This document shows positions 1,552 to 39,046 of a stretch of DNA of 64,000 nucleotides, one piece after another. Numbering within the stretch: the stretch's first letter is position 1; every line of letters begins with the position of its first letter. Under the pieces are notes generated by a model. The model was not told where the DNA came from, made no database searches, and worked only from the letters and a program-made list of their open reading frames with translations. This stretch comes from Planctomycetota bacterium (lineage in GTDB: Bacteria > Planctomycetota > UBA1135 > GCA-002686595), in contig JAJDET010000264.1 of the NCBI GenBank assembly GCA_029259655.1, positions 1-64,000 of the forward strand, written 5' to 3'. A program made the translations under genes and the position numbers.

Positions 1552-2730
1552 TCAGCGCGGGTCCGCGGCGCCGCGGCTGCGCAGCAGCTGACGCATCGCC
1601 TTGCGCGGCTTCATGTCCTTCGCGTGGAGGTAGAGCATCATGCTCGCCATCGAGTCCTGCTGCACGCCGGACGTGTTCTCGTAGACGCTGACGAGCTCGT
1701 ACTCGTGGCCCTTGAAGATCGGGATGCCCTCGACGCTCTTGATGTCCTCGACCTTGGCCAGCCCGATCTTCCCTTCGCCGGCCTGCGTGGCTTCGACCGA
1801 GAGCACCGTCTTGCCGGTCGTCAGGTCGCGCAACTCGAGCGTCTCGGCGAACGGGTGGAGGTGGGCCGCAACCATGTGGATGGTCGTGTCATAGGGCAAC
1901 ATGAGCATCCCGGTCACGAGCGTGTGGTACTCGTGGCGGCCCGGTTCCACGACCCAGTGCGCGGAGAAGCGGCGTCCCAGTCCGTCCTCGAGCAGGTGCT
2001 CGTCGGTGGCCGTGGGCGCCAGCGCACAGCCCGGTCCGTGGCGATCCTCGTCGACCGCGCGCTTGGGAAGGCCGTAGTAGCCGGAGTTTCCCTCGACGAG
2101 CGACAGTCCGGAGGCGCCGTTCTGGATGAGCGGCTTCAGCGGCTTCTCGAGGTCGCTGTCCTTCACGTAGTCGATGAAGACGCGCTGTCGCACTCTTAGC
2201 GTCTCGCCCACGATGTTGTGGTTCAGGACCTGCGTGGAGATGTCGAGCGGTTCGTTCGAGACCCACGGAATGCCGAACCCCTGCGGCATCTCGATGGCGA
2301 GCTGTCCCTGCGAAAGGACGGCCAGGCGGTCCCCCATCACCCTGAGTCCGGTGCCGAACTGTTCCCGATAGCTGGGGGGAGCATCGATGTTCGCGTGACA
2401 CATGAACTCCTCGGACAGCAGAGAGCCGTCCGGGTCCGTAACGGTGGCCTGGTAGCGAACGATCCACACCAGCTCGGGCTCGTCCTCCGGACTGCCCTCC
2501 ACGACGCGGATCGTGTCCTTCGCCATGGGACCTTCCATGGACTTGAAGATCTGGTCCACGGTGTAGACGGGAGACAGGTACTCGCGTCGATGCACGGGTG
2601 CGCCGCTGTGCACACCCGGGCCCCCGGCGCTCTCGGCCCGTTCACTTCCCGAGGGCGTTCCCGAGTCGGCCGAGCACCCGATCAGGGCAGCCAGGCCGAA
2701 CGAGACGACGGTGATGTGTGTTCGCTTCAT
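1552..2730 (-). CDS. hypothetical lipoprotein
   Basis: 392-aa ORF. N-terminus MKRTHITVVSFGLAALIGC has a lipobox-like LIGC. Several His-rich motifs (HLHPF, HEYH). Family not recognised. Confidence 0.5.
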   Translation of the reverse strand: MKRTHITVVSFGLAALIGCSADSGTPSGSERAESAGGPGVHSGAPVHRREYLSPVYTVDQIFKSMEGPMAKDTIRVVEGSPEDEPELVWIVRYQATVTDPDGSLLSEEFMCHANIDAPPSYREQFGTGLRVMGDRLAVLSQGQLAIEMPQGFGIPWVSNEPLDISTQVLNHNIVGETLRVRQRVFIDYVKDSDLEKPLKPLIQNGASGLSLVEGNSGYYGLPKRAVDEDRHGPGCALAPTATDEHLLEDGLGRRFSAHWVVEPGRHEYHTLVTGMLMLPYDTTIHMVAAHLHPFAETLELRDLTTGKTVLSVEATQAGEGKIGLAKVEDIKSVEGIPIFKGHEYELVSVYENTSGVQQDSMASMMLYLHAKDMKPRKAMRQLLRSRGAADPR

Positions 2731-2841
2731 GCTCTCCTTCGAGGAGGCAGTGTATCAGCGAGCCGACGGCGCCGGTTGTGCCGGCCTCGTCCACCCGCCG
2801 AAGGAGCCCGGGACCGGAATTGCCGGTAGGCTGATCGCCCC

Positions 2842-4986
2842 ATGTCGGTCGTGCTCTCGGTGCTGAGCCTTCTCTTGCTCTTCTTCTTGCCGGGGTACCT
2901 CGCCTTGCTGATCGCGAGGGGCGGCGAGGCGGAGCCCGGCCGCCTCTCGATCGTGGAAGCGATCTTCGTCGCGATCGTGTCGAGCGTGATCCTGACGACC
3001 GGTCTCTCCCTCGCGATGGGCTGGACGGACACGTTCTCGCCCCTGCGTCTGTTCCTCGTCGTCGCGACCCTCGCGCTGCCGCTGATTCTCACGGTCGTCG
3101 TTCGCCGGATCCCCTTGTTGCCGTGGACCACGTCGAGCCAGAGCCTCGTACCGTTCGGGCTGCTCGCGATCCTGGCCCTCGCGTACCTGCCCCCATCCGA
3201 ATTCGTCTTCGGCCGTCGGGACGACGGCACCTACGTGAACGCGGCGGCGCAACTCGCGAACGAGGGTGGGCTGCGGTTCGAGGACGACCTCCTGGCTCGC
3301 ATGTCGCCGGACGAGAGGCGGCTCCACTCCCCGCTCTACCTGCCCGGGTTCTACTTCACGGACCAGGAGCAGCGCGGTTCGATCGTCTCGCACGGCTTCC
3401 ACTTCTACCCCGCTTTCCTGGCCGCCCTCCATTCCGTGGGTGGGTTGTCGTTCGCGCTCGCCGGGCCCTGCTTCCTGACGCTGCTGTCGATCCTCGCCGC
3501 ATACCTGCTGGGTTCCATCCTTGCGGGTCACGGCGTCGGTGTACTGGTAGCTCTCCTGATCGGAATCCACCCGATGACCGTCTGGTTCTCGGGGGAGACG
3601 TTCTCCGAGGGAATGTGCGAGGCCCTGGTGCTGAGCTCGGCCGCCCTTCTCCTCCTGGGTTGGCGCGAAACCGCCGAGCCGCGCCGTTTCGGCGGCTTGC
3701 CCGCCTGTCTGCTCGCGCTCTCGGGTGTTGCCCTGTCGGCCGTTCACCTCACGAAAATCGAGTTCATCCTGTTGCCGGCGATCGTCGTGGTCTTCGCGTT
3801 CTGCGCCTGGGCGTACGGCCACATGAACTCGGCGAGATGGCTCTTTCCCGTCGGCTACCTGGTCGGTTTGCTGATCGCCCTGGCCCTCGCTTCGACGACG
3901 AACCGTCTCTACACGCTCGCCACGCTGAGCGTCTACGGCGAGCTCAACTCGACGCGGGCCGCCGCCAGCCTCGCTCTCGTACCGCTCGTGGGAGGAGCGC
4001 TGTTCTTCTTCCGGGACGCGCTGCGGAGAACGCTCCGCCGAGTGAGCCATGCCCGCGTCCTCTGGATCGCATGCGGCGTCACGCTGATCACCGTCGGTCT
4101 CCTCTACTCGATGGCGCCCGACCGCATTCCTCTGCGCACGCTGCGGGAGCCCTATCTCGAGATCTACGAGGGGAAACCGGAATGGCTCCCGCAGAGCCTG
4201 TTCCGGAGCGGTCGCAACCTTCAGGCTCTCGGCTTCTACCTGAGCGTTCCCGGCCTCTTCCTCGGTCTCCTGGGAGCGTTCCTGCTACTCGGGCGTCCCG
4301 CCGCGTTGCCGCTCGTCCCGACGCTGGTGCTCGCATGCGTCCAGACCGGGTTCTATGCCTATGCCACTTCGGTGGGACAGGGCCACATCGACTCGCACCG
4401 CAGGTTCCTCGTTCCGATACCCGTCCTGATTCTTTCCGCTGTCGTTCCCTTCTTCGTCCGCGCAGTGGGAGAACGGTTCGGGCGGATCGCCCGTGTCGCG
4501 GGTATCGCCGTGGCCGTCTATCTCGGTGCGCACTTCCTCCAGGCCTCGTGGCCCTTCCTCTGGAACCGTCCGTGGTGTGGTTCCGAGGCGACTATCCTCA
4601 GCGTCGCCGGTGAGGCTCCCGACAACGCCATCTGGCTGGCTTCGCGAACCGACGAGGACGCTGCCCGGCTCCTCGTCCCTCTTCAGTTCATCGCAGGGGC
4701 GAAGACCTTCCTCGTCGACGACGACATCGTCGACGGAGAGCGGCTCCCGACCCTGCTCACGAGACTTGGAGCGGAAGGCCTCACGCCGGTCGTGCTGCTC
4801 GGTCGGGAGCCGCCGGCGGAGTGGCTCCGAAGATGCCGGGAGGTCTTCGAGCCGTTCGAACCGCGGGTGATCGAGATCGTCGAACCGATCGTCGTCGGCC
4901 AGGTCCACCGCCTACCGGACACCTACGACTTCCGGCTGTGGCGCTATCACGTCTATTTGCACGAGGGCACGCGAGCGGGCGAGTAG
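2842..4986 (+). CDS. polytopic integral membrane protein, possibly a PMT/ArnT-like glycosyltransferase
   Basis: 714-aa ORF with >10 hydrophobic helices and loop regions. The overlapping antisense ORFs are artefacts. Confidence 0.5.
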   Translation: MSVVLSVLSLLLLFFLPGYLALLIARGGEAEPGRLSIVEAIFVAIVSSVILTTGLSLAMGWTDTFSPLRLFLVVATLALPLILTVVVRRIPLLPWTTSSQSLVPFGLLAILALAYLPPSEFVFGRRDDGTYVNAAAQLANEGGLRFEDDLLARMSPDERRLHSPLYLPGFYFTDQEQRGSIVSHGFHFYPAFLAALHSVGGLSFALAGPCFLTLLSILAAYLLGSILAGHGVGVLVALLIGIHPMTVWFSGETFSEGMCEALVLSSAALLLLGWRETAEPRRFGGLPACLLALSGVALSAVHLTKIEFILLPAIVVVFAFCAWAYGHMNSARWLFPVGYLVGLLIALALASTTNRLYTLATLSVYGELNSTRAAASLALVPLVGGALFFFRDALRRTLRRVSHARVLWIACGVTLITVGLLYSMAPDRIPLRTLREPYLEIYEGKPEWLPQSLFRSGRNLQALGFYLSVPGLFLGLLGAFLLLGRPAALPLVPTLVLACVQTGFYAYATSVGQGHIDSHRRFLVPIPVLILSAVVPFFVRAVGERFGRIARVAGIAVAVYLGAHFLQASWPFLWNRPWCGSEATILSVAGEAPDNAIWLASRTDEDAARLLVPLQFIAGAKTFLVDDDIVDGERLPTLLTRLGAEGLTPVVLLGREPPAEWLRRCREVFEPFEPRVIEIVEPIVVGQVHRLPDTYDFRLWRYHVYLHEGTRAGE

Positions 4987-5917: not shown

Positions 5918-6018
5918 GACGGTTCAGGGGTAGGGCCGCTCGGATGTTACAGGGTTCGTCCGCGCTGACATCGCGGAGGAGAGTCCCGTCAATCCGGCTT
6001 GACGGGACCGTCGAGACC

Positions 6019-6038
6019 ATATATAACCCTTTGGTTAT
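6019..6038 (+). promoter_or_regulatory. putative ArsR operator: inverted repeat ATAACC-cttt-GGTTAT preceded by TATATA (-10-like), overlapping the ArsR ATG
   Basis: Perfect 6-bp inverted repeat at 6023-6028 and 6033-6038 with an AT-rich box just upstream. ArsR/SmtB repressors commonly autoregulate through such operators. Confidence 0.4.
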
Positions 6039-6396
6039 GCGTGAGGGCCAGCTCGATCTCGTCTTCTCCGCGCTCGCGGACCCGACACGGCGCGGGATGC
6101 TCGAGCAGCTCGCCGACGGAGAGACCAACGTCGGCACCCTCGCGGAGCCCCACGACATGTCGCAGCCGGCGGTGTCGAAGCACCTGCGCGTCCTCGAGCG
6201 GGCGGGATTGATCCAGCGCACGCGTTCGGGACGCGAGCACCGCATCCGGATCGACCCGCGTCCCATCGACGCCGCGAGCACGTGGATCGGGCGCTACGCC
6301 CGGTTCTGGAAGCAGCAGTTCGACGCCGTCGACGCCTACCTCGAGGCGCACGCGAAGAAGACAGGGAAGAACCCCGGAAAGAGACCCAAGCGATGA
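6037..6396 (+). CDS. ArsR/SmtB-family HTH transcriptional regulator
   Basis: MREGQLDLVFSALADPTRRGMLEQL...SQPAVSKHLRVLERAGLI is a classic ArsR winged HTH. Start taken at the ATG at 6037 inside the longer ORF. Confidence 0.8.
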   Translation: MREGQLDLVFSALADPTRRGMLEQLADGETNVGTLAEPHDMSQPAVSKHLRVLERAGLIQRTRSGREHRIRIDPRPIDAASTWIGRYARFWKQQFDAVDAYLEAHAKKTGKNPGKRPKR

Positions 6397-10580: not shown

Positions 10581-11182
10581 GATCGCGCTGGATCACGAAG
10601 CTCGTCCTGTGCGCGGCCTCGAGTAGCTGCGTCGCGGTGGGTCGCGAGTACTACTACGAGGTCGATTCTCCAGAGGTCGCCATCTCGTATGCCCCGGGCT
10701 GGGTGTTCGAGCCTCCGCGCCATCGAGTCGAGTCCGGCGAAGCCGTCTTGATGTTCCACGGCGACTACACCCAGGTCCTGATCTCCATGGGGCCGGCCCC
10801 GTTCTTCCCGGTGATCCCCGCATGGCCGCTCAGCCTCTTGTGGTACGCGCCGCTACCGGACGACGCCCTGGAGCTTCACTTCCGTTTGACAGGGCCGGAC
10901 GGGAGAACCGAGGTGCACCCGACGCGGATGGTGCTCCTCCTCGCGGACGGGACTCGCATCTCGCCCGAGACGAATCCGCTCGATCACTACCGGGACGAGT
11001 CCGACGAGATCGATTCACCCAGGCGAGTCTTCGGCTTTCGCACGACCTACGCCCTGCCCGAGAACGCCGGCAAGGAGTTCGAGCTCCTCCCCGAGGGCAT
11101 CTTGATCGACGACCTGGCGCCGGACTTTCCCCGCCTCGTCCTCCGACGCACGGCGGGCTGGAAGTACATCATCCCGGGCTGA
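10577..11182 (+). CDS. hypothetical lipoprotein, paralog of the upstream gene
   Basis: MRSRWITKLVLCAASSSC. Shares a C-terminal region with 9984-10580 (EEEEFELLIEGVSIDGE vs GKEFELLPEGILIDD). ATGA start/stop overlap. Confidence 0.55.
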   Translation: MRSRWITKLVLCAASSSCVAVGREYYYEVDSPEVAISYAPGWVFEPPRHRVESGEAVLMFHGDYTQVLISMGPAPFFPVIPAWPLSLLWYAPLPDDALELHFRLTGPDGRTEVHPTRMVLLLADGTRISPETNPLDHYRDESDEIDSPRRVFGFRTTYALPENAGKEFELLPEGILIDDLAPDFPRLVLRRTAGWKYIIPG

Positions 11183-11383
11183 GGACCACGTGATCGAGCG
11201 AGCCGCCGTCAGGCGGCTCACGTTCGCGTGAAAAGAAATAGAAGAACGATGTGACCTCTCGCGCGATCATGTCGTTATATGAAGTCGATGGCGAAGCAAC
11301 TGCACAACCAGCCCCGGCCCACGTCCTTCTTGGAGGTCGATCCGGCCGGCTGATCCTGGACAGAGGAGCCCGTTCTCCGATGA

Positions 11384-11411
11384 GCCCAGGATCGAGGTCC
11401 TGGGCTTTTTT
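11384..11411 (+). terminator. rho-independent terminator: stem GCCCAGGA/TCCTGGGC, loop tcgagg, then T6
   Basis: Perfect 8-bp GC-rich stem followed by TTTTTT. Confidence 0.6.
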
Positions 11412-11588
11412 CGTTTCGGAGAACGAGCAGAGAGGAACGCGATGCACATCCAGCGGAAACGTACAGAACAAGTGATAGGGAACGATTGGCGCGGGTTCTT
11501 GCCCGTCTGCCCGGTCGACCACCGGCAGTCGTTCAGAGCGAACGGCCTGGAGGATCGCGCACCCTAGCCCTGACTTCCGCGCATCGAC

Positions 11589-11619
11589 GCACGGGAAGCC
11601 CAGGGCACACCAGCCCTGG
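11589..11619 (+). terminator. rho-independent terminator: stem AGCCCAGGGC/GCCCTGGGCT, loop acacca, then T6
   Basis: Perfect 10-bp stem followed by TTTTTT. Near-identical design to the terminator at 11384. Confidence 0.6.
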
Positions 11620-11923
11620 GCTTTTTTCGTGCCCCTCCCGTTCGAGGTGACAAGGCAACAAGGCGGTTCGAACCGTTCGCGGTACCGGTCCGCCCGCACG
11701 ACGATCTGTGACAACCAGGTGAGATCACTAACGAGGCGGTCGACGACCCGTTCGTCGCCGCCCGTAGTTCAACGCCGATCAACGCCCGGGGGCGTGATCG
11801 GCGTGTCGGCCGGGCCGACGGAGAGTGGAGCTGGCTCGAGGGGGAGCTCGCAACGCATCGCGCAATACGCGTCCTCTCCGTCGGCCCGGGCAGTGGGGAG
11901 CCCAAGGGCGCATGGTGCGTGTA

Positions 11924-11998
11924 GTTCAGTGGCGGAGCGGGAGGGTGTGAGCCTCCAGACCAGGGTTCGATTCCCTGCACGCACCCCCATCGCCCGGT
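11924..11998 (+). tRNA. tRNA-His (anticodon GTG) with G-1
   Basis: Manual fold: acceptor GTGCGTG/CACGCAC with an extra 5' G, D-arm GTTC..GAGC, anticodon stem GGAGG/CCTCC with loop GTGTGAG, T-arm CAGGG-TTCGATT-CCCTG. Confidence 0.8.
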
Positions 11999-12015
11999 AG
12001 AACAGGGAGCGGTAG

Positions 12016-12091
12016 CTGAGACGGTGCAAGCGCTGGTTCGAAACACCGGAGACGAGGGTTCGATTCCTTCCCGCTCCGCCCAACAAACGCC
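12016..12091 (+). tRNA. atypical tRNA (best fit tRNA-Phe GAA), possibly a pseudogene
   Basis: Good acceptor GGAGCGG/CCGCTCC and T-arm GAGGG-TTCGATT-CCTTC. D-stem has a mismatch. The only workable anticodon stem is CTGGT/ACCGG with loop TCGAAAC, which places C at position 33. Confidence 0.4.
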
Positions 12092-12098
12092 TCCGTAG

Positions 12099-12174
12099 CT
12101 CAGCCGGCAGAGCAGCGGATTCTTAATCCGAAGGTCGCAGGTTCGATGCCTGCCGGGGGCACCAGCAAAACTCC
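12099..12174 (+). tRNA. tRNA-Lys (anticodon CTT)
   Basis: Acceptor GCCTCCG/CGGGGGC with A73 and CCA. D-arm GCTC..GAGC, anticodon loop TTCTTAA, T-arm GCAGG-TTCGATG-CCTGC. Confidence 0.8.
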
Positions 12175-12193
12175 CTTCCCACTTCCAGGGTGG

Positions 12194-12266
12194 TGTAGCG
12201 GAAGCACGCGAGGCTCTGAACCTCGCAGCCGGGGTTCGAATCCCTGCCCTGGATCCACCACCTCGA
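12194..12266 (+). tRNA. tRNA-Gln (anticodon CTG)
   Basis: U1-A72 acceptor TCCAGGG/CCCTGGA with CCA. Anticodon stem CGAGG/CCTCG with loop CTCTGAA. T-arm CGGGG-TTCGAAT-CCCTG. Confidence 0.8.
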
Positions 12267-12278
12267 TCGGCCCCGTCG

Positions 12279-12326
12279 TCCCGAGACGCGGTTTTCGATT
12301 CCCGTCGGGGTCGCCAGCACCTTCCC
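12279..12326 (+). other. tRNA-derived minihelix: intact acceptor stem plus T-arm and CCA, no D or anticodon arms
   Basis: GGCCCCG...CGGGGTC-G-CCA enclosing a T-arm-like GCGGTTTTCGATTCCCG. Only 30 nt lie between the acceptor halves. Confidence 0.45.
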
Positions 12327-12414
12327 CCTCGACGAAGAGCACTCACGGACGTCGTCCGGCGGCGCGCCCTCCACCCTCGAACGGGTCTCGGGAGGCGTGT
12401 TCCGCGACACGGGT

Positions 12415-12460
12415 TCGACCGGTGTCCGCGAGAGGCACGCTCGAAAGAGCACACGACGGT
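12415..12460 (+). other. tRNA-like remnant: outer stem GCGTG/CACGC enclosing a long hairpin that carries a GGGTTCGACC T-loop-like motif
   Basis: CGCGACAC-GGGTTCGACCG-GTGTCCGCG nested inside GCGTG...CACGC. Confidence 0.35.
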
Positions 12461-12473
12461 GAAACGTGAACTG

Positions 12474-12527
12474 GTAAGGCACGCACTGCGTGCTGGGGTT
12501 CAAATCCCTCCACGGGCCTGGATTGGC
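12474..12527 (+). other. degenerate tRNA-Gln-like remnant with a collapsed anticodon arm
   Basis: GGTAAGGCAC D-region like the intact tRNA-Gln. T-arm TGGGG-TTCAAAT-CCCTC. Anticodon arm reduced to CAC-TGC-GTG. Confidence 0.35.
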
Positions 12528-12877
12528 CCCTCCCCGCGATCCGGGGAAGCAACTCTCCGGTGAACCGGTCGAACCGGCGTCGGTCGGACGGCACGGGTCG
12601 TCCGACGACACCGCTGTAGACACCGCAGCGAGAGGCCTCGCAGTCGCGCAACCTCGAGCCGGCGCACCACGGCCTGACTCGTCCTCGCGCGGGATTCGAG
12701 ATCTCGATCCCGTCCCGATGATGGTCATGTCGCGGAAGACGTCGGCTCGATGGCGCGACTCCGCCGCCCGCGCGGAGGCTCGACCGAGAGTCTCTCCCCC
12801 GGATCGCACCACCAAACACGGCACGGGACGTCCCCGTGCTGCTTCTGTTCCGGCCGCAACGAGAGGAGGTGACGGCC

Positions 12878-14002
12878 ATGTTCTCCCGAGTCCGCATCAA
12901 GCAGAACGAAGTCGGTCTGTGGTTCCGCCACGGCGACTTCAAGAAGTTCCTCGAGCCGGGCGTGTACTTCGTCCCGGGTCGAATCTTCGGATTCGACGAG
13001 GTCGAAGTCTTCGACACGCTGAACGCTCGCTTCGAGCACCCGCTCCTGGACGTTCTCGTCGTGGACGAGGACCTGAAGGCGGAGCTCTTCGTCGTCGACC
13101 TCGTCGACGACGAGCGGGCGTTCGTGTGGAAGGACGGCCGCCTGTTCGACATCCTCGGACCGGGCCGCCACGCGTTCTGGAAGCGACCGTACGACCTCGA
13201 CTTCGAGGTGAAGACGATCGCCGATCCGCTCTTCGAGCACGATCGGATGAACGCGATCCTCCTGCACGCGAAGGCGTCCTACTTCCTGCAGCCGGTCCAC
13301 GTCGAGACCGGTGAGCGTGTGCTCTTCTTCCAGGAAGGTCGCCTCATCGGCACGGTCGACGAGGGCATGACCGTGTTCTGGAAGCAGGTCGCGGGCGTCA
13401 CGTGGAAGATCGTCGATCAGCGCGAGCAGGTCGCCGACGTCGCCGGACAGGAGATCATGACGTCCGACAAAGTCACGCTGCGCGTGAACCTCGTCGCCAC
13501 CTACCAGGTGAAGGACGCCGTGAAAGCCGTTGCCACGGTGGACGACTACGAGCAGGCCCTCTACCGGGAGGCCCAGCTCGCCCTGCGCAAGATCGTCGGT
13601 ACGCGAGCTCTCGACGCCCTCCTGACCGACAAGGAGGCCGTCGGCACCGAGGTCGCCGCCGCGATCGCGAAGCGCGCGACGGAGTTCGGGGTCGCAGTGA
13701 TCAGCGTCGGTCTGCGGGACATCATCCTGCCGGGCGACATGAAGACGATCCTGAACCAGGTCATCGAGGCCGAGAAGCAGGCCGAGGCGAACCTGATCCG
13801 TCGTCGCGAGGAGACCGCGGCCGCGCGCAGCCAGGCGAACACCGCTCGCCTGCTCGCGGCCAACCCGGCCCTCGCTCGCATGAAGGAGCTCGAGGCCGTC
13901 CAGGACATCTTGGCCGGTGCGAAGGCGACCTTCGTGTTCGGCAAGACGGACCTGGTCGGTCAGGTCCGGCAGCTCACCGAAACGAACGGTGAGGAGGATT
14001 GA
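12878..14002 (+). CDS. SPFH/band-7 (stomatin/slipin-like) domain protein
   Basis: Translation TSDKVTLRVNLVATYQVKDAVKAV...ALRKIVGTRALDALLTDKE...IEAEKQAEANLIRRREETAAA is typical SPFH with a coiled-coil tail. Confidence 0.8.
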   Translation: MFSRVRIKQNEVGLWFRHGDFKKFLEPGVYFVPGRIFGFDEVEVFDTLNARFEHPLLDVLVVDEDLKAELFVVDLVDDERAFVWKDGRLFDILGPGRHAFWKRPYDLDFEVKTIADPLFEHDRMNAILLHAKASYFLQPVHVETGERVLFFQEGRLIGTVDEGMTVFWKQVAGVTWKIVDQREQVADVAGQEIMTSDKVTLRVNLVATYQVKDAVKAVATVDDYEQALYREAQLALRKIVGTRALDALLTDKEAVGTEVAAAIAKRATEFGVAVISVGLRDIILPGDMKTILNQVIEAEKQAEANLIRRREETAAARSQANTARLLAANPALARMKELEAVQDILAGAKATFVFGKTDLVGQVRQLTETNGEED

Positions 14003-14003
14003 C

Positions 14004-14037
14004 GACGGGCGCCCCGGTCGCGAACGGGGCGCCCGTC
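14004..14037 (+). terminator. GC-rich hairpin 2 nt after the SPFH stop (13-bp perfect stem, no U-tract)
   Basis: GACGGGCGCCCCG-gtcgcgaa-CGGGGCGCCCGTC. Confidence 0.4.
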
Positions 14038-35530: not shown

Positions 35531-38500
35531 TCAGAGAGGGTCGCCGGAGAGTACCCATCCCGCCCAGTCGCGCAGCTCGGCACCTTCGTCGCGCAGTGCG
35601 CGCTTGGCCTGCCACAGAGCCTCGACCTTCGGCACGCCCTCGAGCCAGAGCTTGGCGTAGAAGAGCTCCATGAGACGCCGCGTCATGGCGTCGTCGACCT
35701 TCCAGAGGCTCGTGATCGCCGTTCGCACGCCCGCTGCGTGGAGAGCTGCCTGCAGCGACTGGACGCCCTGCCCCGCGCGCCGGATGCCGACGCCCGTCTC
35801 GCACGCGCTGAGCACGGCGAGCTCGCACGCCGAGAGATCGACACCGGCCAGCTCCTCCGCGGTCAGGATGCCAGGTACGCGGCCCTGGGAATCGCGGCCG
35901 CGGTTGGCACCGGAGAAGGCGAGACCGCAGAGGGTCATCGGCGCGAAACCGGTCGCCGTCGCACGCGGGTCGAGCGCGTTCCACGGATCGGATTCCCGCT
36001 CCGAGTCGGCGTCGAGGGTCGACGGAACGCTGTCCGGTGCGAACCAGCCGTGGGTCGCGACGTGCAGGTACGACTTGCCGGGCGCTTGCGCGTGAAAGCC
36101 GGCCTTGGTCGCGTACTCGCCGAGGAGGACGAGAGGCCGGCGCTCGAAGGCCTCCTCGAAGAGAGCGCCGACCGCGTTCGCCTCCGCGCGCGTTTCGGCG
36201 AGCGGAGCGAACTTCGTCTGCGCCCCCGCGCTGCGCGTTCCGTGATCGACGGGAGCCGAAGACTCCCCGTCCGGGGAGTGGAGGCCGGTCCCGTCGAACG
36301 CCGCGTCTCCCAGGACCAGGAGCGCCGGCTCGGGCTCGGATCGGCGGGACGACACGACGAGGCGCGCGAACGAGACCTCGATCACGATCCGGTGGCGGTC
36401 ACCGACCCGCACGAGGCGCCCGCCCTCCGGCGGCCGGTCGAGCGGCAACGCGTCCAGCGGCACGACGTGGAGAAAGTCGTCCAGGCAGACGTAGAGGGTC
36501 GTGCCTTCCTCGAGCAGGTTGAGCACCGGGTCGAGGACGTACGCACGCAGGCGCCTCCCGGCCTCGTTCAGGTCGGGCTGGGGCGCGCCCGGATGTCCGA
36601 CACCCAGGCCGCGCGAGACCATCGGCTCCCCGGCGGCTTCGCGCCAGAGCTCCGCGAGCTCCTCGATCCGGGCCGCCGATCCGAGATCCACCTCGATCAG
36701 GGATCCGTCCGGACGCAGAACGTGTGCCGCCATGACCTCGCCCACGGAGCGGAACTCTCGCCATGCGTGGTGACGGAGGAACCCGACCGCGACGGAGCCG
36801 TCGGGCAACGCGCGCGCCACGTCGTCACTCTCGACGGAGCCGGCGAAGACGCCGCTCGCTACGCGATCGTCGCGTACCTCGCGTTCCAGCATGTCGCGCT
36901 CGCGCACGACCTCGAAGATCTCGGCGGCGTACTCCCCCAGCGTCTCGCCCCCACGAGGTCCACCCGCGACCAGGTCGGAGAGTCGCGCGCGCTGAGCGGC
37001 GACACGCTCGGACTGCGAGCTCGCGACCAGGCGACAGCCGGCCATGTTGGAGACCGCGCGCAGCGTCTCGGCCAGATCGAAACGCGCTTCCGCGAGACCG
37101 TCTGCACTGGCCCCACGGGTCAGGTAGCGCACGATCCTGTGGCGGTGCGACTCCCACCTCGCGATCTCCCGCGCTTCGCGAGGTGAGAGCGCCCACGCGA
37201 TCTCGAGCTGACGCCGAACGCCGCGCGCCAGATCCCGTCCGAGCCGGTGCGCTTCCTCGGTCTCCCCCTGTTCCAGTAGGATCAGAGCAAGGTTCTGGCG
37301 GGATCCGAGGAGGTCCGGGTGGTCCTCGGGCAACGTCCGCTCGCGAATGGCGAGGACCTCCGCCAGGAGCGCGCGCGCACGATCGACCTCGCCGATGTTG
37401 CGAAGCGTGATGGCGAGGTTTTCCCGTGCGCCCAGGAGGTTCGGGTGACCTGGGGGAAGCGTCCGCTCGAAACCCTCGAGCACGGACTCCTCCAGCTCCC
37501 GTGCTGCCGCGTGCTGCCTCATCCGCTTCAACAGACCCGCGAGTATCCCGCGGGCACGCAGGAGATCGGGATCGTCCCCGGACCGCGACTGCTCGATGCC
37601 GGCGAGCCCCGCCTCGAGGAGCCGGCGGGCCGCGTCGCGCTCGCCGAGATCGACCAGGATCCCGCTGAGATTGATGCGAGTCCGGAAGAGGTCCACGTGT
37701 TCACTCGGGAGCGTGCGCTCATAGCCGGCGAGTGCGCGTTCCGTCATGGCCCGCGCGGCGACGAGGTCGCCGATCGCGCGCAGGGTCAATCCCAGGTTCG
37801 CGTACGCCGGGAGCCGGCGCGCTTCGTCATTTCCCGCACGCTCGAGCACCGCGAGAGCCGATTCCTGCAGCGCGCGCGCGCGTGACAGATCGCCCAGCGC
37901 CTTGACGGTGTCCGCGAGATCGAGCCGCGCGCCGATAGCGAGCGGATGATCGCCCGCGACGTCGCGTTCGTACCCGGCGAGCACGCTCTCCTGCAATTCG
38001 AGAGCTTCGGGGAGCTGGCCAAGCTCGAAGAGAGTCGCTCCGAGCTTCGCGCGAACGCCGAGGATATCGGGATGCCCCGCAGGAAGGGTCTGCTCGCATG
38101 CGGCGAGAATCGACTCCTGGAGGTCGCGCGCGCGGTCCAGCTCTCCGAGCTTCAGGAGCGTCGTGGAGAGGTTCAGTCTCAGGCGGAGGACCATCGGGTT
38201 CTCGTCGGGCAAGGCCTCGCCCAGATCCGCCAGCGCCCGCTCCTGCAACCTGAGCGCTCCGTCGAGATCGCCCAGCGCGCGCATCGTCAACGCGACGTTC
38301 CCGCGTATGCGCGCGAGGCTGGGGTCGCCAGGACGGTACGCGCGCTCGGCGCTGGAGAGCAGCCCGTCCTCGAGCGCGAGTGCACCCTGGAGATCGCCCA
38401 GACTCTTCAGGGTGAGGGCCAGGTTCTCCCGCGCGCTGAGCGACATCGGGTGCTCTTCGCCGAGCGTGCGCACGAACCCGTCGAGCGTCGCCTCCTGCAA

Positions 38501-39046
38501 CGGACGAGCGCCGGCGAAGTCGCGGAGCTCGTACAGGGTGGCCGCAAGGTTCGAGCGAGCCCGGAGCAGATCGGGGTCGTCGTCGGGACGCGTGCGCTCG
38601 TAGTTCGCGAGGATCTCCTCCTCGAGCCCGCGTGCGCCGTGGAGGTCGCCGCTGGACGCCAGCGCCGTGGCGAGGATCGTCTTCGCGCGCAGGAGCGAGG
38701 GGTCGTCGGGGGGATGCAAGCGCTCGCGGTGCGAGACGATGCGAGCGAATGCCTCGCGGGCTCCCTCGAGGTGCCCGACGTTCCACGCGAGCACGCCCGC
38801 GCGCCAGAGCAACTCGAAAGCCTCGCCACTTTGCTCGTCGAGGGGGATCGCCTCCAGCGTCTCGAGCGCCGCTGCAAGGTCTGCACGCGCCGCTGCGGCG
38901 TCACCGGCTCCCAGCGCGCTCGCCGCACGCTCGAGCACGCGCTCGACGGAGGACAGGTCGACCGGGTGCTCGTCCGTCGCGCCTTCTTGACCGATCAGGG
39001 GTCCCGAGACCGCGAGGGCGATCAGAACAACGTTCGCGAGGGCCAT
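35531..39046 (-). CDS. secreted TPR-repeat protein with a C-terminal CHAT (caspase-like) protease domain
   Basis: Signal peptide, then >15 TPR units. C-terminal YLHVATHG (His) and AVLSACETG (Cys) form the CHAT catalytic dyad. Confidence 0.85.
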   Translation of the reverse strand: MALANVVLIALAVSGPLIGQEGATDEHPVDLSSVERVLERAASALGAGDAAAARADLAAALETLEAIPLDEQSGEAFELLWRAGVLAWNVGHLEGAREAFARIVSHRERLHPPDDPSLLRAKTILATALASSGDLHGARGLEEEILANYERTRPDDDPDLLRARSNLAATLYELRDFAGARPLQEATLDGFVRTLGEEHPMSLSARENLALTLKSLGDLQGALALEDGLLSSAERAYRPGDPSLARIRGNVALTMRALGDLDGALRLQERALADLGEALPDENPMVLRLRLNLSTTLLKLGELDRARDLQESILAACEQTLPAGHPDILGVRAKLGATLFELGQLPEALELQESVLAGYERDVAGDHPLAIGARLDLADTVKALGDLSRARALQESALAVLERAGNDEARRLPAYANLGLTLRAIGDLVAARAMTERALAGYERTLPSEHVDLFRTRINLSGILVDLGERDAARRLLEAGLAGIEQSRSGDDPDLLRARGILAGLLKRMRQHAAARELEESVLEGFERTLPPGHPNLLGARENLAITLRNIGEVDRARALLAEVLAIRERTLPEDHPDLLGSRQNLALILLEQGETEEAHRLGRDLARGVRRQLEIAWALSPREAREIARWESHRHRIVRYLTRGASADGLAEARFDLAETLRAVSNMAGCRLVASSQSERVAAQRARLSDLVAGGPRGGETLGEYAAEIFEVVRERDMLEREVRDDRVASGVFAGSVESDDVARALPDGSVAVGFLRHHAWREFRSVGEVMAAHVLRPDGSLIEVDLGSAARIEELAELWREAAGEPMVSRGLGVGHPGAPQPDLNEAGRRLRAYVLDPVLNLLEEGTTLYVCLDDFLHVVPLDALPLDRPPEGGRLVRVGDRHRIVIEVSFARLVVSSRRSEPEPALLVLGDAAFDGTGLHSPDGESSAPVDHGTRSAGAQTKFAPLAETRAEANAVGALFEEAFERRPLVLLGEYATKAGFHAQAPGKSYLHVATHGWFAPDSVPSTLDADSERESDPWNALDPRATATGFAPMTLCGLAFSGANRGRDSQGRVPGILTAEELAGVDLSACELAVLSACETGVGIRRAGQGVQSLQAALHAAGVRTAITSLWKVDDAMTRRLMELFYAKLWLEGVPKVEALWQAKRALRDEGAELRDWAGWVLSGDPL

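Follow-up and report, generated by a model that had tools for sequence, protein, structure and literature searches.

The closest described counterpart of the locus reported here is the 'band 7-associated tRNA', abbreviated b7a-tRNA, predicted by Burroughs and Aravind in 2016. As summarised in a later preprint (bioRxiv 10.1101/312249), that prediction links b7a-tRNA, Band-7 and RtcB and assigns them a predicted role in RNA repair. The preprint describes a strong resemblance of b7a-tRNA to authentic tRNA, without experimental validation, and considers the b7a-tRNA/Band-7 pair to be probably analogous to YrlA/Y RNA with Ro60. It was the only mention of b7a-tRNA in the literature that we searched. 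A second relevant system is the long tRNA array (L-array), which is found in cyanobacteria, has been noted in Planctomycetes, spreads horizontally, is linked to an HNH endonuclease and is co-regulated with rtcB (PMC8421152; PMC4758250). Our literature search returned no paper joining tRNA arrays to Band-7/SPFH proteins. We analysed 64,000 nt of DNA from a Planctomycetota bacterium (assembly GCA_029259655.1, contig JAJDET010000264.1, positions 1 to 64,000; hereafter the window), in which a tRNA cluster lies within a 1.7-kb non-coding gap (11183-12877) directly ahead of a Band-7/SPFH gene (12878-14002). A previous sequence-only reading had described this cluster as a tRNA array embedded in tRNA-derived debris. 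Features are on the + strand unless stated otherwise.

We consider it probable that the non-coding region 11183-12877 makes up the upstream portion of a Band-7-associated RNA locus, which in the window is reduced and partly decayed. The argument is built on conservation, covariation and gene neighbourhood. In relatives such a locus comprises, in this order and on one strand, accessory tRNAs (more than 30 in some loci and none in others), a conserved hairpin element, a tRNA-like gene whose anticodon loop is free, an element made of a hairpin and a T-arm, a long structured leader and the Band-7 gene. We read the window as a reduced version of this layout, with four accessory tRNAs (one weakened by C33), a tRNA-Glu pseudogene, both flanking elements intact, a truncated and fused tRNA-like gene, and Band-7.

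Conserved RNA elements upstream of Band-7 genes

The window was compared with 80 genomic loci encoding relatives of its Band-7 protein and with six more from metagenome assemblies. In 46 loci, with or without an array, ARAGORN called a single tRNA-like gene that precedes Band-7 on its strand; the two lie 283-842 nt apart in 45 of these loci and 1289 nt apart in L057. From the sequences called by ARAGORN we built a covariance model (R1), which added about 14 loci with a tRNA-like gene where ARAGORN had none. In the cloverleaf alignment 89.8% of cells are paired; with slid partners the value falls to 34.5-42.7%. Both sides have changed in 18 of 21 pairs, and none of 500 shuffles reached the observed values. 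Choosing the set with a cloverleaf finder inflates the pairing, but has no bearing on the conserved location or on the compensatory changes. The identities assigned by ARAGORN are incoherent (ATC, ATG, AAT, AAA, AAG and 'anticodons' of 2 or 4 bases). Because the anticodon loop varies from 3 to 8 nt, the 30 seven-nt loops contain 21 different triplets, and genes called 'Leu' or 'Ser' have no long variable arm, the Band-7-associated RNA is, to judge from its sequence, tRNA-shaped and non-decoding.

By tblastn with the RtcB of L002, RtcB adjoins Band-7 in 24 loci, among them loci of Planctomycetota, Acidobacteriota, Desulfobacterota, Lentisphaerota and one gammaproteobacterium. Large co-oriented tRNA arrays are found around Band-7 in L002 and L077 (35 tRNAs each in about 10 kb), L045 (33), L007 (30) and L060 (24), and gaps within the relatives' arrays encode RtcB RNA ligase (Pfam, 2.9e-65) and HNH endonuclease. 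L002, L077, L045 and L007 qualify as long arrays in the sense of Tran et al. (2016), who require at least 20 tRNA genes at a density of at least 2 per kb; the window, with 4 tRNAs in 64 kb, does not.

The element 5′ of the tRNA-like position lies at 12346-12432 and corresponds to the second degenerate copy of the sequence-only reading. RNAalifold predicts a long irregular hairpin, with compensatory changes in 11 of 24 predicted pairs. By blastn its identity is 84% over 64 nt with L087, which has no tRNA genes at all, and 77% with L086. Alignment of 13 sequences left 21 invariant columns, among them the blocks GTCCGGCGGC and GTTCCGCGACACGGGTTC (12399-12416). The element can be aligned with ten Phycisphaeraceae loci, where it stands between the last tRNA of the array and the tRNA-like gene. 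The 18-nt motif GTYCCGNGWNWCGGRYTC is present in a single copy per locus in 16 loci, including a Holophagae genome, and always lies on the + strand just 5′ of the tRNA-like gene. We define the element as a long hairpin that contains GTYCCGNGWNWCGGRYTC and precedes the tRNA-like gene by 12-40 nt; 12399-12416 matches the motif exactly and is the sole match in the window. One scan of metagenomes for GTCCGGCGGCGCGC-N(25-45)-CCGCGACACGGGTTC gave no match. The T-loop look of this element, due to GGTTCGA at 12412, is coincidental, since most relatives have TTCTATC at this place, and as far as can be told the element is not tRNA-derived.

The element 3′ of the tRNA-like position lies at 12471-12571 and corresponds to the third degenerate copy of the sequence-only reading. 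Its consensus, located between the tRNA-like gene and Band-7, consists of CTGG(C/T)A, a T-arm with a hairpin on either side, and a CGCGGGTCGGGG-type motif; in about half of the loci the first of these hairpins has a GNRA tetraloop. The window has every part: CTGGTAAG, hairpin H1 (12479-12493), the T-arm (12495-12509), hairpin H2 (12514-12529) and CCGCGATCCGGGG (12533-12545). Covariance model R3, built from 17 sequences that all come from outside the window's clade, matched 12471-12571 over its full length with 41.6 bits (E 2e-7), the top match of the whole window, and also matched L086, L082 and L087 at the equivalent place. In the R3 alignment 86% of cells are paired, a value reached by none of 500 shuffles. 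Further members, in loci beyond its training set, came from model R2, in which the window's clade is included. MAFFT misaligned H1 and we therefore took the model-based alignment for this element. Two full tRNA-like genes stand in tandem before Band-7 in L004, L017, L025, L027, L030, L068, L070, L071 and L073 (first 110 nt after the tRNA-like gene); in other loci the second position is held by the reduced element of CTGGYA, hairpin and T-arm. That the tandem copy and the reduced element occupy the same second position suggests that the latter derives from a second tRNA-like copy.

Between the two elements, at the expected distance after the motif, 12430-12470 appears to be a remnant of the tRNA-like gene, of which the 5′ half is left. 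It comprises a D hairpin, GCTC-GAAA-GAGC (12439-12450), and an anticodon-arm-like hairpin (12452-12468), and has neither a T-arm nor a 3′ acceptor strand of its own; the next T-arm belongs to the element at 12471-12571. The same fused layout is seen in L087, where R1 matches at full length through the shared T-arm (18.2 bits, E about 1e-3), and in L082 (15.6 bits). L086 is more diverged at this position. A deletion in the ancestor of the clade would have joined the tRNA-like gene's 5′ half to the element that follows it.

Besides the selection effect on the cloverleaf set, several points weigh against our interpretation. Within 600 nt upstream of Band-7 the window contains no full cloverleaf according to ARAGORN, Rfam and R1, the nearest true tRNAs being 620-960 nt upstream. 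R1 gave partial matches to 12439-12468 (model positions 10-43, 7.6 bits) and 12496-12508 (9.6 bits), and the reading of a fused b7a-tRNA draws on four sequences. Single-sequence folding energies of the three pieces downstream of the tRNAs (the two elements and a truncated tRNA gene described below) were no better than those of shuffles (z of +0.39 to -0.52), a score that is uninformative at 65% GC. The window's row fits only 23 of the 38 gap-free pairs of the 3′ leader structure of Phycisphaeraceae. Neither an RtcB gene (tblastn with L002 RtcB) nor an HNH gene was found in the 64-kb window. Finally, the function of b7a-tRNA is a prediction.

tRNA genes and a truncated tRNA-Glu

ARAGORN and Rfam each give exactly four tRNA genes for the 64 kb. 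These are the same four + strand genes that had been named from the sequence alone, and all of them exceed the gathering score of the Rfam RF00005 cloverleaf model (29 bits). They are tRNA-His(GTG) with G-1 (11914-11989, 52.8 bits, 75% identical to tRNA-His of L086), tRNA-Phe(GAA) (12006-12080, 57.5 bits, CCA not encoded), tRNA-Lys(CTT) (12089-12164, 64.1 bits, CCA encoded, 83-84% identical to tRNA-Lys of L086) and tRNA-Gln(CTG) (12184-12257, 59.2 bits, CCA encoded). The four genes take up 344 nt, with spacers of 8-19 nt. Upstream of the non-coding gap lie two genes without known function, the last of which ends at 11182. Beyond these four, Rfam gave no tRNA match in 11300-12900 at E up to 10; at this level there were chance matches such as mascRNA on 12455-12517 (19.8 bits) and YrlA on real tRNAs (17.7 bits). 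ARAGORN at lowered thresholds produced 11-31 overlapping calls on both strands, which were discarded as noise. The motif GGTTCRA is enriched at the cluster: of its 23 matches on the + strand of the 64 kb, 8 lie within 11600-12600. A phage origin of the cluster was rejected: blastn against phages matched the tRNAs alone and tblastn with Band-7 gave no phage.

The Phe gene had been singled out as atypical, with C33, a mispaired D-stem and a possible GAA anticodon, and all three features were recovered. Its anticodon loop is UCGAAAC, C33 lies at 12039 and the D-stem contains a G13-A22 mismatch; by the Rfam tRNA model it scores normally. U33 in a 7-nt anticodon loop, a trait of functional elongator tRNAs, is present in the other three tRNAs of the window and absent from this one. 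All seven Phe genes of relatives have T33, so by this comparison C33 is a derived change.

The best comparator for the array is L086, whose Band-7 is 66% identical. Its array reads His-Phe-Ala-Met-Gln-Thr-Arg-Lys-Pro-Glu, followed by the leader, Band-7 and Arg-Leu-Gly-Asn. By blastn His and Phe together are 72% identical over 173 nt and Lys 84%, and Gln is aligned too. No array comparison at short distance was available because, in the two relatives whose proteins are most similar (74% and 69% identical), the contig ends 300-530 nt before the Band-7 gene. L084 begins with an assembly-type palindrome. In L085 (67% identical) a protein gene lies between the tRNA-like gene and Band-7, and its upstream region cannot be aligned to the window. 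Between Arg and Lys, L086 also contains a tRNA-like sequence that ARAGORN does not call (6000-6084), with an acceptor pair GGTCCCGA/TCGGGACC followed by GCCA, a T-arm GCGAG-TGCAAGT-CTCGT and a loop TTGTCAA; the arrays of relatives therefore contain degenerate members as well.

Of the three degenerate copies previously proposed downstream of tRNA-Gln, three tRNA-like pieces do follow, and one alone, at 12269-12316, is a degenerate tRNA copy. R1 matches it with 11.1 bits (E 0.007) and a 34-position deletion in which the D and anticodon arms are gone. Alignment to the intact tRNA-Glu(TTC) of L086 (6280-6355), which holds the same position as the last gene before the leader, identifies it as tRNA-Glu(UUC) from which about 28 nt are deleted (the 3′ part of the D-arm and the anticodon arm). 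It keeps a 7-bp acceptor stem (5′ strand GGCCCCG), the 3′ acceptor strand and CCA, and its T-arm is damaged by a bulge and a 9-nt loop that is not a canonical T-loop. The acceptor, T-arm and CCA minihelix of the sequence-only reading is thus real; it lies at 12269-12316 and not at 12279-12326, and its T-arm is bulged. Because the truncation is found in no relative (L086 has a full tRNA-Glu and L087 nothing at that place), we regard 12269-12316 as a lineage-specific tRNA-Glu pseudogene on the strength of these alignments.

Minihelices are known substrates of RNase P and of CCA-adding enzymes. The piece could therefore be a functional small RNA, a substrate or decoy for RNase P, a CCA-adding enzyme or an anticodon-independent enzyme, and the 7-bp acceptor stem followed by CCA, inside a tRNA transcription unit, would suit such a role. 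However, the absence of the truncated form from every relative and the damaged T-arm are poorly compatible with it, and the piece folds as shuffled sequence does (z = +0.39). We give this proposal very little weight. The broader suggestion that minihelices here might be functional tRNA-like RNAs survives in altered form: conserved structured RNA accounts for two of the three pieces, neither of which has the form of an acceptor plus T-arm minihelix, and the true minihelix is lineage-specific.

The fragments had also been taken as a usual mark of integrases or other mobile elements that repeatedly target tRNA 3′ ends. The pseudogene does retain the 3′ half, which is what integrases duplicate; horizontal spread has been reported for long arrays (PMC8421152), and relatives encode an HNH homing endonuclease. 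On the other hand, about 20 flanking open reading frames (ORFs) have no Pfam integrase match, many of them no match at all, and no tRNA 3′-end repeat is present among the 20 largest families of direct repeats in the window. The 5′ acceptor strand is kept in the pseudogene; the retention of both acceptor strands therefore indicates an internal deletion and not an att duplication. The order of the elements is the same in distant relatives, with fixed positions across phyla, and the GC content (63-72% along the window) shows no break at the cluster. Scars of tyrosine integrases or other mobile elements are thus a very unlikely origin of the fragments.

Further tRNA fragments had been proposed upstream of the array. 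The sequences exist, GTAGTTCA at 11764 and GGTTCGAAC at 11665; the evidence for a tRNA origin is weak. R1 scores 8.2 bits on 11758-11819 (E 0.05). GTAGTTCA occurs just twice in the window, at 11764 and at 11921 inside tRNA-His, and because it recurs only there, a weak but plausible case may be made for a tRNA 5′-end remnant at 11764; the upstream copy has no counterpart in L086. At 11665-11674 there is a palindrome, GGTTCGAACC, within a run of GTTCG/CCGTTCG repeats (11638, 11673 and 11748), and 11662-11703 has a weak blastn match in L087. The region as a whole (11635-11913) directly follows an intrinsic terminator (11597-11634), folds better than shuffled sequence (z = -3.07) and contains two long GC-rich hairpins before tRNA-His (11771-11805 and 11806-11893); comparable long hairpins precede tRNA-His in L086. 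We infer that 11635-11913 serves the array transcript as its promoter or 5′ leader and is not tRNA debris.

Just 5′ of the cluster lie two tandem units (11281-11355 with 11382-11412, and 11443-11568 with 11597-11634), each composed of a short ORF (24 aa and 41 aa) and a near-identical intrinsic terminator (GCCCAGG...CCTGGGCTTTTTTCG). Their terminator-like pieces have blastn matches in L087 (5382-5428) and L086 (4750-4806). These units may represent small proteins or sRNAs.

An account in which all non-tRNA material is neutral debris of a shrinking long array, and the stretch from tRNA-Gln to the start of Band-7 is functionless, fits part of these data. At least six tRNAs of L086 are lost in the window, where His, Phe, Lys and Gln are kept, Glu is truncated and U33 of Phe has become C. 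These losses support the array decay suggested by the sequence-only reading. The tRNAs are merely 66-83% identical to their L086 counterparts, and the pieces fold no better than shuffles. However, 12346-12432 and 12471-12571 are kept in position and sequence though the Band-7 proteins are only about 50-65% identical. Their conservation extends to loci without any tRNA array, such as L087, L010, L016 and L033, and their stems carry compensatory changes. For these two elements neutral decay is largely refuted by the match of the clade-excluded R3 and by the occurrence of the motif once per locus in 16 loci. As an explanation of the whole region we consider it improbable. Two of the three remnants have counterparts in related loci and so are not noise, and we conclude that the earlier observation was largely right and its interpretation partly right.

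The leader and the Band-7 gene

The rest of the non-coding leader (12572-12877) contains hairpins and no conserved ORF. Between the tRNA-like gene and Band-7 no ORF is conserved in 46 loci, and a small ORF in the leader was rejected as a candidate, the longest in several loci (L038, L050, L054, L060 and L072) being only 24-33 aa. A terminator-like hairpin (12819-12841) with the pyrimidine-rich tail CTTCTGTTCC lies 36 nt before the Band-7 ATG, and a small hairpin (12852-12856 paired with 12873-12877) encloses the Shine-Dalgarno sequence; relatives show comparable structures. In Phycisphaeraceae the remaining ~330 nt of the leader fold into a long-range domain of about 250 nt, in which 86.6% of cells are paired, compared with 39-44% when the partners are slid, and 30 of 50 pairs change on both sides; none of 500 shuffles was as good, in a test that is biased because the structure was derived from the same alignment. 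Transfer of this domain to the window's clade was dropped on the fit of its pairs given above. In the same family CTGGCA was considered as a sigma-54 -24 box and rejected, as there is no -12 element.

The conserved elements might instead form a purely cis-acting 5′ leader, an attenuator or a riboswitch-like device that sets Band-7 expression according to tRNA status or a processing enzyme. The terminator-like hairpin recurs 34-43 nt before the ATG in the window and in eight relatives (L087, L003, L004, L006, L007, L012, L039 and L009), the Shine-Dalgarno sequence is held in a hairpin and there is no room for a separate promoter. In the Escherichia coli homologue a sigma-54-like TGGCAC-N5-TCGCA about 300 nt upstream implies a long leader. 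Against this, there is no evident ligand or sensor, and the literature treats the tRNA-like gene as a separate non-coding RNA (bioRxiv 10.1101/312249). Regulation in cis is also compatible with a Band-7-associated RNA locus and not opposed to it; as the sole role of the elements we consider it unlikely.

Under our interpretation as a reduced Band-7-associated RNA locus, a single RNA would be transcribed from about 11635 to a GC-rich hairpin right after the Band-7 stop codon (14003-14037), which probably ends the transcription unit. The tRNAs would be freed by RNase P and RNase Z. The structured RNA would either be kept as the 5′ leader of the Band-7 mRNA or end at the terminator-like hairpin 36 nt before the ATG. 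By analogy with what has been proposed for Y RNA/Ro60, the structured RNA and the Band-7 protein could then act as a scaffold or decoy in tRNA damage and repair.

The Band-7 gene (12878-14002) encodes a 374-aa protein of the 'slipin family' (Pfam Band_7, 2.5e-35). Its homologues with 40-74% identity come from Planctomycetota, Acidobacteriota, Desulfobacterota, Lentisphaerota and Gammaproteobacteria; the nearest of them (60-74%) belong to Phycisphaerae and other Planctomycetota from metagenomes. It is 62-66% identical to Phycisphaeraceae proteins encoded about 1.2 kb from RtcB. Reading the translation by eye, we saw no hydrophobic membrane-anchor segment. The N-terminal 145 aa (12878-13300), likewise read by eye, contain three W..G.....L.PG...FW repeats before the SPFH domain, and this part differs from membrane-anchored HflK/C and stomatin. 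With NCBIfam there was only weak similarity to HflK/HflC, PADLOC gave no defence-system match, and no tRNA-like match was obtained downstream of Band-7.

A number of side observations concern the surroundings of Band-7 genes. Five loci encode a protein of ~195 aa without a Pfam match, either within the tRNA array or in the interval that separates the tRNA-like gene from Band-7 (L045 3453-4040; L085 5958-6473; L004 7432-7956; L009 3715-4248; L057 5193-5519). Directly downstream of Band-7 in the closest relative (L082, 74% identical), an AbiEii/AbiEi toxin-antitoxin pair lies on the opposite strand (1738-3329). About a quarter of E. coli complete genomes (1425 of 5426) carry a slipin island between rluF/DUF3811 and lysC, with a slipin-family protein (35% identical to that of the window), a nucleotidyltransferase and a zeta-toxin-family kinase. 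The 530-nt gap upstream of the slipin gene in E. coli L088 (CP061233.1; 4686-5001) holds the sigma-54-like sequence given above, a GCGTGTTCCG motif resembling 12396-12405 of the window and a lone T-arm, TGGGTTCGATTCCCA; it contains neither a full tRNA-like cloverleaf nor an Rfam match. Elsewhere in the window a minus-strand ORF (35531-39046, 1171 aa) contains direct repeats with a 126/252-nt period (37338-38638; families D1 and D2), and its product is probably a repeat protein.

Comparison with known systems

b7a-tRNA is a ten-year-old prediction, and the locus described here, together with its relatives, gives the RNA concrete boundaries. In Planctomycetota, Acidobacteriota, Desulfobacterota and others it also connects the system with long tRNA arrays, with RtcB and with HNH endonucleases. 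Tentatively, and with less confidence than in the interpretation of the locus itself, we propose that b7a-tRNA is one module of a ~600-nt multi-domain structured RNA upstream of apparently anchor-less Band-7 genes in several phyla, part of a large RNA-protein system for tRNA damage. Its modules would be the 5′ hairpin element, the cloverleaf, the hairpin and T-arm element, the long-range domain of ~250 nt and the terminator-like hairpin. If so, tRNA arrays with RtcB and HNH have repeatedly gathered around this RNA, and the window shows a case in which the cloverleaf was partly lost and the flanking modules were kept. Should the RNA bind the SPFH protein, the two would be a second pair of scaffold protein and tRNA mimic in RNA repair besides Ro60/Y RNA, and a new role would follow for an SPFH protein that is apparently not membrane-bound. 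There is also a consequence for annotation: tRNA finders miss these elements or call them tRNAs with odd anticodons (ATC, ATG, AAT, AAA, or of 2 or 4 bases), and neighbouring elements that contain a T-arm can pass for tRNA debris. We found no description of the two flanking elements or of the link to arrays in the literature searched, including the 2016 prediction in its summarised form; the original 2016 account lies outside this comparison and the novelty of the two elements is unproven.

Among known systems the b7a-tRNA system is the most similar. The window's Band-7 gene is directly preceded, on the same strand, by a putative tRNA-like RNA, and its product shares 40-74% identity with proteins encoded downstream of a cloverleaf tRNA-like gene, with RtcB nearby in 24 loci. 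The window differs in that its tRNA-like gene appears reduced to D and anticodon-arm-like hairpins fused to the next T-arm, and in that no RtcB is present in 64 kb. The tRNA array units (PMC8421152; PMC4758250) share with the window co-oriented, tightly spaced tRNAs and a pseudogene; relatives have HNH endonuclease and RtcB embedded among 25-35 tRNAs per 10 kb, as is seen around the cyanobacterial arrays. However, the window has only four tRNAs against a 20-gene definition, and a Band-7 gene and b7a-type RNA inside arrays are absent from both papers. The resemblance to att scars left by integrases at tRNA 3′ ends is limited to the genuine truncated tRNA gene at 12269-12316, which differs from such scars by its internal deletion with both acceptor strands kept; about 20 flanking ORFs gave no integrase, and the largest direct-repeat families no att repeat. 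YrlA/Y RNA with Ro60 (Rsr) in rtcBA operons offers a functional parallel, since there too a non-decoding RNA with a tRNA-like module is found beside a putative scaffold protein and RtcB. The Rfam YrlA match in the window (17.7 bits, E 1.7) falls on a stretch that is really tRNA-Phe and tRNA-Lys, and in place of a TROVE/Ro60 protein, which is absent here, the partner of the RNA would be an SPFH protein.

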